64,000 nucleotides of DNA, from assembly GCF_058153355.1 (NCBI RefSeq), contig NZ_CM177019.1; one strand, 5' to 3'. Below the pieces are notes generated by a model. The model was not told the DNA's origin, made no database searches, and worked only from the letters and a program-made list of their open reading frames with translations. The translations under genes were made by a program, and so were the position numbers. How positions within the stretch are numbered: position 1 is the stretch's first letter; every line of letters begins with the position of its first letter. Positions 57,521 through 57,573 of this stretch are shown piece by piece.

Positions 57521-57573
57521 ATATACTATAGGGGGGTATGCATTGACATATAGCATACCCCCCTATAGTATAT
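57521..57573. promoter_or_regulatory. Candidate FrmR operator: perfect 21-bp inverted repeat with G6/C6 tracts flanking a TTGACA-containing spacer
   Basis: ATATACTATAGGGGGGTATGC - ATTGACATATA - GCATACCCCCCTATAGTATAT; sits about 25 bp upstream of the frmR start; G-tract flanked by AT-rich arms is typical of RcnR/FrmR-family operators. Confidence 0.65.

Follow-up and report, generated by a model that had tools for sequence, protein, structure and literature searches.

The promoter of frmRAB, the formaldehyde-detoxification operon of Escherichia coli K-12, is called Pfrm and contains a large inverted repeat that is centred at -29 and carries tandem ATAC-N9-GTAT type I sites for the repressor FrmR (Denby et al. 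2016, Sci Rep 6:38879, PMC5146963). In that study, FrmR bound Pfrm with a Kd of about 220 nM, compared with about 3600 nM for control promoter DNA, formaldehyde dissociated the protein from the promoter, and transcription of frmRAB in vitro was repressed by FrmR and relieved by formaldehyde (PMC5146963). According to the literature on Pfrm, repression by FrmR has been shown in vivo, too. Denby et al. also remarked that a single tetramer might use both of its faces on sites about 31 bp apart (PMC5146963). Genomic SELEX with the RpoD holoenzyme placed a peak in the frmR-yaiO spacer and assigned the hexamers TTGACA-15-TATAGT to it (Shimada et al. 2014). The operator has thus been described, and it has also been engineered and used in formaldehyde and methylglyoxal biosensors.

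When both ATACN9GTAT units were moved into the constitutive J23100 promoter, FrmR-dependent repression resulted, and native Pfrm cut back to a point just upstream of the units no longer showed repression (2024 study, PMC11127321). Given the truncation result, the two units may not suffice in the native setting. The literature that we searched yielded no footprint of E. coli Pfrm and, for the frmR transcription start, no experimental mapping, only the SELEX-based hexamer assignment (Shimada 2014). Reviews citing the Sort-seq dissection of Pfrm (Rohlhill 2017) give no positional detail, and a 2026 paper on formaldehyde resistance in UTI isolates (PMC13029678) leaves the promoter and operator unmentioned.

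Two related systems are described in the literature. The 33-bp frmRAPro probe of Salmonella Typhimurium, TTCTGATAGTATACCCCCCTATAGTATATGGAG, bound two FrmR tetramers at about 100 nM each, and replacement of its 5' flank abolished FrmR binding (Osman et al. 2015 and 2016, PMC4528141, PMC5016687); this probe was assayed by fluorescence anisotropy, and K-12 Pfrm by BLItz (PMC5146963). For E. coli rcnR-rcnA, tandem RcnR sites of the form TACT-G6-N-AGTA are described by Iwig & Chivers (2009), as cited in PMC5146963.

Here, we report a computational analysis of a long palindrome found immediately upstream of an frmR gene in a 64-kb stretch of DNA, hereafter the window. The palindrome is already known: it is the published operator-promoter of E. 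coli frmRAB, and the main reading of a first-pass annotation of this DNA was correct. Recognition of the palindrome as a textbook-style repressor operator removes it from the list of unexplained features. What the present analysis adds is that the majority allele is the perfect palindrome, that the proximal FrmR unit is widely conserved and the distal one restricted, and that the long palindrome as such is not conserved.

The palindrome and the promoter elements within it

The features on which the analysis rests are as follows, in window coordinates.

57518-57576, no strand assigned: extended palindrome, 24-nt arms with 1 mismatch and an 11-nt spacer, corresponding to the "large inverted repeat" of Pfrm (Denby 2016, text on Fig. 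6a)
57523-57539, no strand assigned: distal FrmR unit, ATAC-TATAGGGGG-GTAT, a type I site (motif as defined in PMC5146963 and PMC11127321)
57543-57548, plus strand: -35 hexamer TTGACA (promoter scan; genomic SELEX table of Shimada 2014)
57555-57571, no strand assigned: proximal FrmR unit, ATAC-CCCCCTATA-GTAT, overlapping the -10 region; conserved in front of frmR homologues across Proteobacteria
57564-57571, plus strand: -10 region, either TAGTAT at 57566-57571 (17-nt spacer, scan) or TATAGT at 57564-57569 (15-nt spacer, Shimada 2014)
about 57576, plus strand: predicted transcription start, from the published "inverted repeat centred at -29"
57588-57593, plus strand: Shine-Dalgarno sequence GAGGTG, of which AGGT is conserved in the promoter alignment
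57598-57873, plus strand: frmR, 91 aa, with Pro2 and Cys35 present (NCBIfam NF008464, 189 bits, cut-off 133; PDB 5LBM, E = 4e-55; RefSeq)
57908-59017, plus strand: frmA, S-(hydroxymethyl)glutathione dehydrogenase (TIGR02818, 743 bits)
59111-59944, plus strand: frmB, S-formylglutathione hydrolase (TIGR02821, 400 bits)

The left (distal) perfect arm, ATATACTATAGGGGGGTATGC (57521-57541), and the right (proximal) arm, GCATACCCCCCTATAGTATAT (57553-57573), are exact reverse complements that flank the AT-rich 11-nt spacer ATTGACATATA. The arms include a G6 tract (57531-57536) and a C6 tract (57558-57563), and, with one mismatch, a repeat finder extends the symmetry to 24-nt arms (57518-57541 and 57553-57576). 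When inverted repeats with spacers of up to 30 nt were ranked across the whole 64-kb window, this 21-nt perfect repeat was the longest, the runner-up measuring 13 nt; in 20 shuffles of the window, the longest perfect inverted repeat was 9-12 nt. The palindrome sequence has no further copy in the window, where only the two arms match, and is separated from the frmR start codon at 57598 by 24 nt. Recomputation therefore reproduced exactly the perfect 21-bp inverted repeat with G6/C6 cores that the first-pass annotation had described, together with the 11-bp spacer containing TTGACA and the position immediately upstream of frmR. A separate minus-strand match (H55) was discarded because it is the palindrome matching itself in reverse, with no second element.

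Within the palindrome lie two 17-bp FrmR units in mirror orientation, 32 bp apart from centre to centre, which are the only two matches to ATAC-N9-GTAT in the 64-kb window. Each unit combines a palindromic frame, ATAC/GTAT, with an asymmetric core in which TATAG is followed by a run of G. The palindrome is long and perfect because the two asymmetric cores are mirror images of each other; it is best seen as a consequence of the mirror placement of the units, not as a structure selected for base pairing.

The promoter scan of positions 57250-57950 gave a single sigma-70-like match, TTGACA-17-TAGTAT, which falls within the palindrome, and no divergent minus-strand promoter that would use the left arm. 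The -35 hexamer begins 3 bp after the end of the distal unit. Counting from the palindrome centre at 57547, the -29 position of Denby et al. predicts a transcription start at about 57576. The sequence conforms to a type I operator site of the CsoR/RcnR family (DUF156), with the G6 and C6 tracts held in the units, and the location fits as well, with the -35 between the units, the -10 in the proximal unit, and an FrmR equivalog as the first downstream gene. The proposal of an RcnR/CsoR/FrmR-type site accordingly agrees with the published description of E. coli Pfrm as a G/C tract with AT-rich flanking repeats (PMC5146963). An FrmR operator overlapping the -35 element had also been proposed; an FrmR operator does lie at the promoter, but it brackets the -35 and covers the -10.

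The genes downstream match this assignment: NF008464, TIGR02818, and TIGR02821 each pass their cut-offs, in the order frmR-frmA-frmB on the plus strand. The FrmR protein matches the crystal structure of EcFrmR (5LBM) over residues 1-91, scores 68 bits on the RcnR model, for which the cut-off is 138, and is identical in 5 of the 5 RefSeq strains compared (WP_001141271.1). Upstream of frmR, tauA (56330-57292, minus strand) is divergent. The frmR start at GTG 57577 in the list of open reading frames is an artefact of mechanical ORF calling; RefSeq has ATG 57598.

We conclude, with a probability of roughly 0.93, that the palindrome is the operator-promoter (Pfrm) of the autoregulated frmRAB operon, in which two 17-bp FrmR units bracket the -35 and cover the -10, and from which repression is relieved by formaldehyde. 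Under the proposed mechanism, disc-shaped FrmR tetramers seated on both units in the absence of formaldehyde would bar sigma-70 RNA polymerase from the -35 and -10. Formaldehyde would cross-link Pro2 to Cys35 between subunits and thereby remodel the DNA-binding surface; FrmR would then leave the DNA, allowing frmR-frmA-frmB to be transcribed, and the inclusion of frmR itself would amount to negative autoregulation. In this model, we infer where transcription starts, which contacts FrmR makes exactly, and with what stoichiometry and geometry it sits on the two-unit operator. The contacts are provisionally assigned to the two units from the logic of the motif, the single-site results for Salmonella, and the transplantation of the units into J23100.

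Homologous frmR promoters in other species

Scanning species-representative genomes for FrmR gave 80 loci from other species (L007-L086). In 65 of these 80 loci, the frmR start codon lies 12-57 bp beyond the end of an ATAC-N9-GTAT unit, against a calculated chance expectation of about 0.05 per 3.3-kb locus. The unit-bearing loci include those of Brucella/Ochrobactrum, Pseudorhodoferax, Lysobacter relatives, Tatumella, and Actinobacillus, and conservation of the proximal unit ahead of frmR homologues spans Alpha-, Beta-, and Gammaproteobacteria. A distal mirror unit preceding a TTGAC -35 was seen in Escherichia and in a family whose FrmR is about 90% identical and which is hosted by Citrobacter, Klebsiella, Enterobacter, Pantoea, Edwardsiella, Providencia, Morganella, Serratia, Erwinia, and Aeromonas, in whose promoters the unit centres are 33-35 bp apart. 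Deefgea and one Paraburkholderia likewise have a second unit. The distal mirror unit is restricted to Escherichia, the plasmid-borne family, and these few others.

A plasmid-borne frmR of about 90% identity, with the two-unit mirror promoter, was found on 487 plasmids, mostly conjugative, from Klebsiella, Enterobacter, Citrobacter, Escherichia, Salmonella, and others, and this cluster is a mobile formaldehyde-response module. An exemplar of the plasmid-type frmR lies on an Edwardsiella anguillarum plasmid (L014 1390-1773), with related loci in L013, L016, and L024.

Leaving aside E. coli and the cryptic-clade strain E1V33, dual-unit promoters show 2-10 differences between their arms over 23 positions (5 of 23 in E. 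albertii). The description of the arms as more perfect than those of a typical operator is thus apt for E. coli but does not extend to the homologous promoters elsewhere. In Erwinia endophytica (L022 1422-1471), the units ATACTGGGATATAGTAT and ATACTGGTGTATAGTAT are direct, not inverted, repeats with 15 of 17 positions identical, an arrangement that serves as a natural experiment and indicates that the long palindrome can be dispensed with.

We aligned 17 promoters, with the left arm slightly out of register in the rows of Citrobacter and Klebsiella grimontii owing to the 10-nt core of the distal unit in these two; across this alignment, 76% of the arm-arm cells are paired, compared with 74% after shuffling, and 28 to 113 of 500 column shuffles reach the observed measures of covariation. 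What is conserved among the homologous promoters is the sequence of ATAC, GTAT, and TATAG, not the pairing. Covariation does not exceed column conservation; the arms are thus alike through the conservation of each column, as expected of a protein-binding sequence, and not through maintained pairing. The lack of conservation of the long palindrome itself argues that the units matter rather than base pairing.

The frmR promoters (about 1400-1500) of a Citrobacter MAG, Klebsiella grimontii, and the marine Maribrevibacterium harenarium (L012, L015, and L017) are near-identical, which suggests recent horizontal transfer or contamination. In all three, the distal unit has a 10-nt core, ATAC-N10-GTAT.

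The element within E. coli

The window is E. coli DNA. Of 5426 complete E. coli genomes, 5388 carry the 106 bp adjoining frmR (57495-57600), at 90-99% identity and in every case at an annotated frmR. In 3554 complete E. coli records, the exact 55-bp sequence 57520-57574 was found, once per genome, and a further 1594 records carry it with one or two differences. K-12 Pfrm has A for C at 57554 (GAATAC versus GCATAC), which leaves its inner arm mismatched, whereas the window holds the perfect allele; the published binding work was done on the K-12 allele, one base off the window's. In E. coli, the majority allele is the perfect palindrome rather than the K-12 sequence. Position 57553 is T in EC42405. 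In E. coli HCP30S3_I2 (L005, about 461-478), a seventh C in the right arm (C7 in place of C6) disrupts the ATAC-N9-GTAT frame, through either a homopolymer sequencing error or natural variation in the operator.

The element occurs in three upstream contexts, next to yaiO in K-12, tauA in ST131 and the window, and fbpC in O157. Homology among these contexts begins 15-26 bp upstream of the palindrome, with breakpoints at 57495 (versus K-12) and about 57506 (versus O157). The block at 57495-57520, CCGGATAAATTTTAT(G/T)CTCCA(A/G)TG, is conserved across all three contexts. Because this block is conserved and repression is lost on truncation (PMC11127321), we suggest that the FrmR complex also draws on flanking DNA, as RcnR does when it wraps DNA.

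Between tauA and Pfrm, the 164 bp at 57331-57494 replace a 5.2-kb block of K-12 that comprises a PIG-L deacetylase pseudogene, yaiP, an IS2-interrupted acetyltransferase gene, a transferase gene, and yaiO; O157 has an fbpC-containing segment in the same place. The tauA-adjacent arrangement is found in only 593 of the 5426 E. coli genomes. Upstream of tauA, just 38 bp (57293-57330) are shared with K-12, beyond which similarity is no higher than chance (score 34, shuffle maximum 35). In K-12, the tauABCD regulatory region carries Cbl and CysB sites. Because similarity to K-12 ends 38 bp upstream of tauA, this regulatory region may differ in the window's lineage. The tauA-frmR intergenic region also contains a 13-nt inverted repeat, AAAACGTCTTGTT / AACAAAGCGTTTT (57360-57388), with 85% complementarity and a 3-nt loop. 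Downstream of frmB, at 59955-60160, are two tandem REP/BIME-type units (GCCGGATGCGGCGTGAACGCCTTATCC...GTAGGCATGATAAGACGCG...), which are ordinary E. coli extragenic palindromes and give rise to spurious short ORFs.

Alternative readings and comparison with known systems

A repeat of this length could, in principle, act through its structure. Under negative supercoiling, a cruciform might sequester the -35 in its loop and so modulate the promoter or sense supercoiling, with or without FrmR. The perfect 21-bp arms around an AT-rich 11-nt spacer, the folding of the palindrome as single-stranded DNA at -23.8 kcal/mol (z = -6.6 versus shuffles), and the status of the perfect allele as the E. coli majority form (3554 records) are in keeping with this suggestion; the first-pass annotation had raised the possibility of a cruciform. 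It is physically possible, but we found no evidence that supports it, and the symmetry is poorly kept in relatives, with 2-10 of 23 arm positions differing in homologous promoters, 5 differences in E. albertii, and the inner-arm mismatch in K-12; the Erwinia endophytica units are direct repeats; and arm-arm covariation is no better than in column shuffles. Moreover, an 11-nt loop disfavours cruciform extrusion. We consider a functional cruciform highly improbable. The same symmetry, if transcribed, would give a very stable RNA hairpin, which could serve as structure in the frmR leader or as a terminator or insulator against transcription from an upstream gene; yaiO in K-12 and fbpC in O157 are indeed co-directional with frmR. 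However, tauA is divergent in the window, transcription is predicted to start at the palindrome's 3' edge (about 57576), and no other promoter-like site lies upstream on the plus strand within 57250-57950. The scan of this interval also revealed no terminator-like site, there being no T-run. The predicted frmR leader folds with ordinary stability (z = 0.37), and a search of Rfam with 57250-57950 at a permissive E-value gave only sub-threshold matches to eukaryotic miRNA precursors (27 bits versus a gathering score of 90). These matches are spurious, of the kind that any long hairpin yields. With no intrinsic terminator, no RNA family, and no arm covariation, and with an unstructured leader, the first-pass suggestion of an RNA hairpin in the frmR leader is not supported, and a role for transcribed structure has an even slimmer chance than the cruciform.

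The proximity of the breakpoint of a variable genomic segment, about 25 bp away, raises another alternative, in which the palindrome would be an element that is repeated, moves, or recombines, for instance a REP-like sequence or an IS terminal repeat. The yaiO, tauA, and fbpC contexts do all end 15-26 bp from the left edge of the palindrome. Against this, the palindrome is present in a single copy per genome (median 1 place), always beside frmR, so that the multiple copies per genome of REP/BIME, MITE, or IS-end sequences are absent, and the breakpoints differ (57495 versus about 57506), as expected if selection merely preserves the promoter. Of the readings weighed here, a mobile element is the most remote.

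The operator-promoter reading admits an elaboration. Instead of acting as two independent sites, the mirror units might join with about 25 bp of conserved DNA upstream of them (57495-57520) in a single higher-order complex, with FrmR tetramers wrapping or bridging the DNA and the -35 trapped between them. The loss of repression on truncation (PMC11127321), the remark of Denby et al. on the use of both faces of a tetramer, and the perfect allele in the majority of strains hint at this arrangement, which we nevertheless regard as rather unlikely. If it were true, near-perfect symmetry would matter for cooperativity or for transient cruciform extrusion.

As an FrmR operator, the element is closest to K-12 Pfrm, which is the same locus and the same element, with 96% identity over 126 bp. 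The two differ in the upstream neighbour (tauA in the window, yaiO in K-12), and the distance between unit centres is 32 bp as measured here, compared with the 31 stated for K-12 Pfrm (PMC5146963). The Salmonella probe matches the window at 26 of 33 positions (57545-57577) and at 23 of 24 over the core 57550-57573, at the right arm. Its proximal unit is near-identical, ATAGTATACCCCCCTATAGTATAT versus ATAGCATACCCCCCTATAGTATAT, with the C6 tract and the T/A-rich flanking repeats; a single C6 site is described for Salmonella frmRA, whereas E. coli has an additional mirror unit upstream of the -35.

The plasmid-borne frmR clusters of Enterobacterales resemble the window in having two mirror units around TTGAC, the proximal one over TATAGT, but their cores are GTGGA/TCCAC in place of G6/C6 and their centre spacing is 34 bp instead of 32. 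The rcnR-rcnA promoter is similar in that a paralogous DUF156 tetramer binds it and flanking DNA contributes via wrapping (PMC5146963). It differs from Pfrm in the flanks of its sites (TACT/AGTA versus ATAC/GTAT) and in core length, in a centre spacing of 19 bp compared with 32 bp, and in the effector, which is Ni/Co for RcnR and formaldehyde for FrmR.
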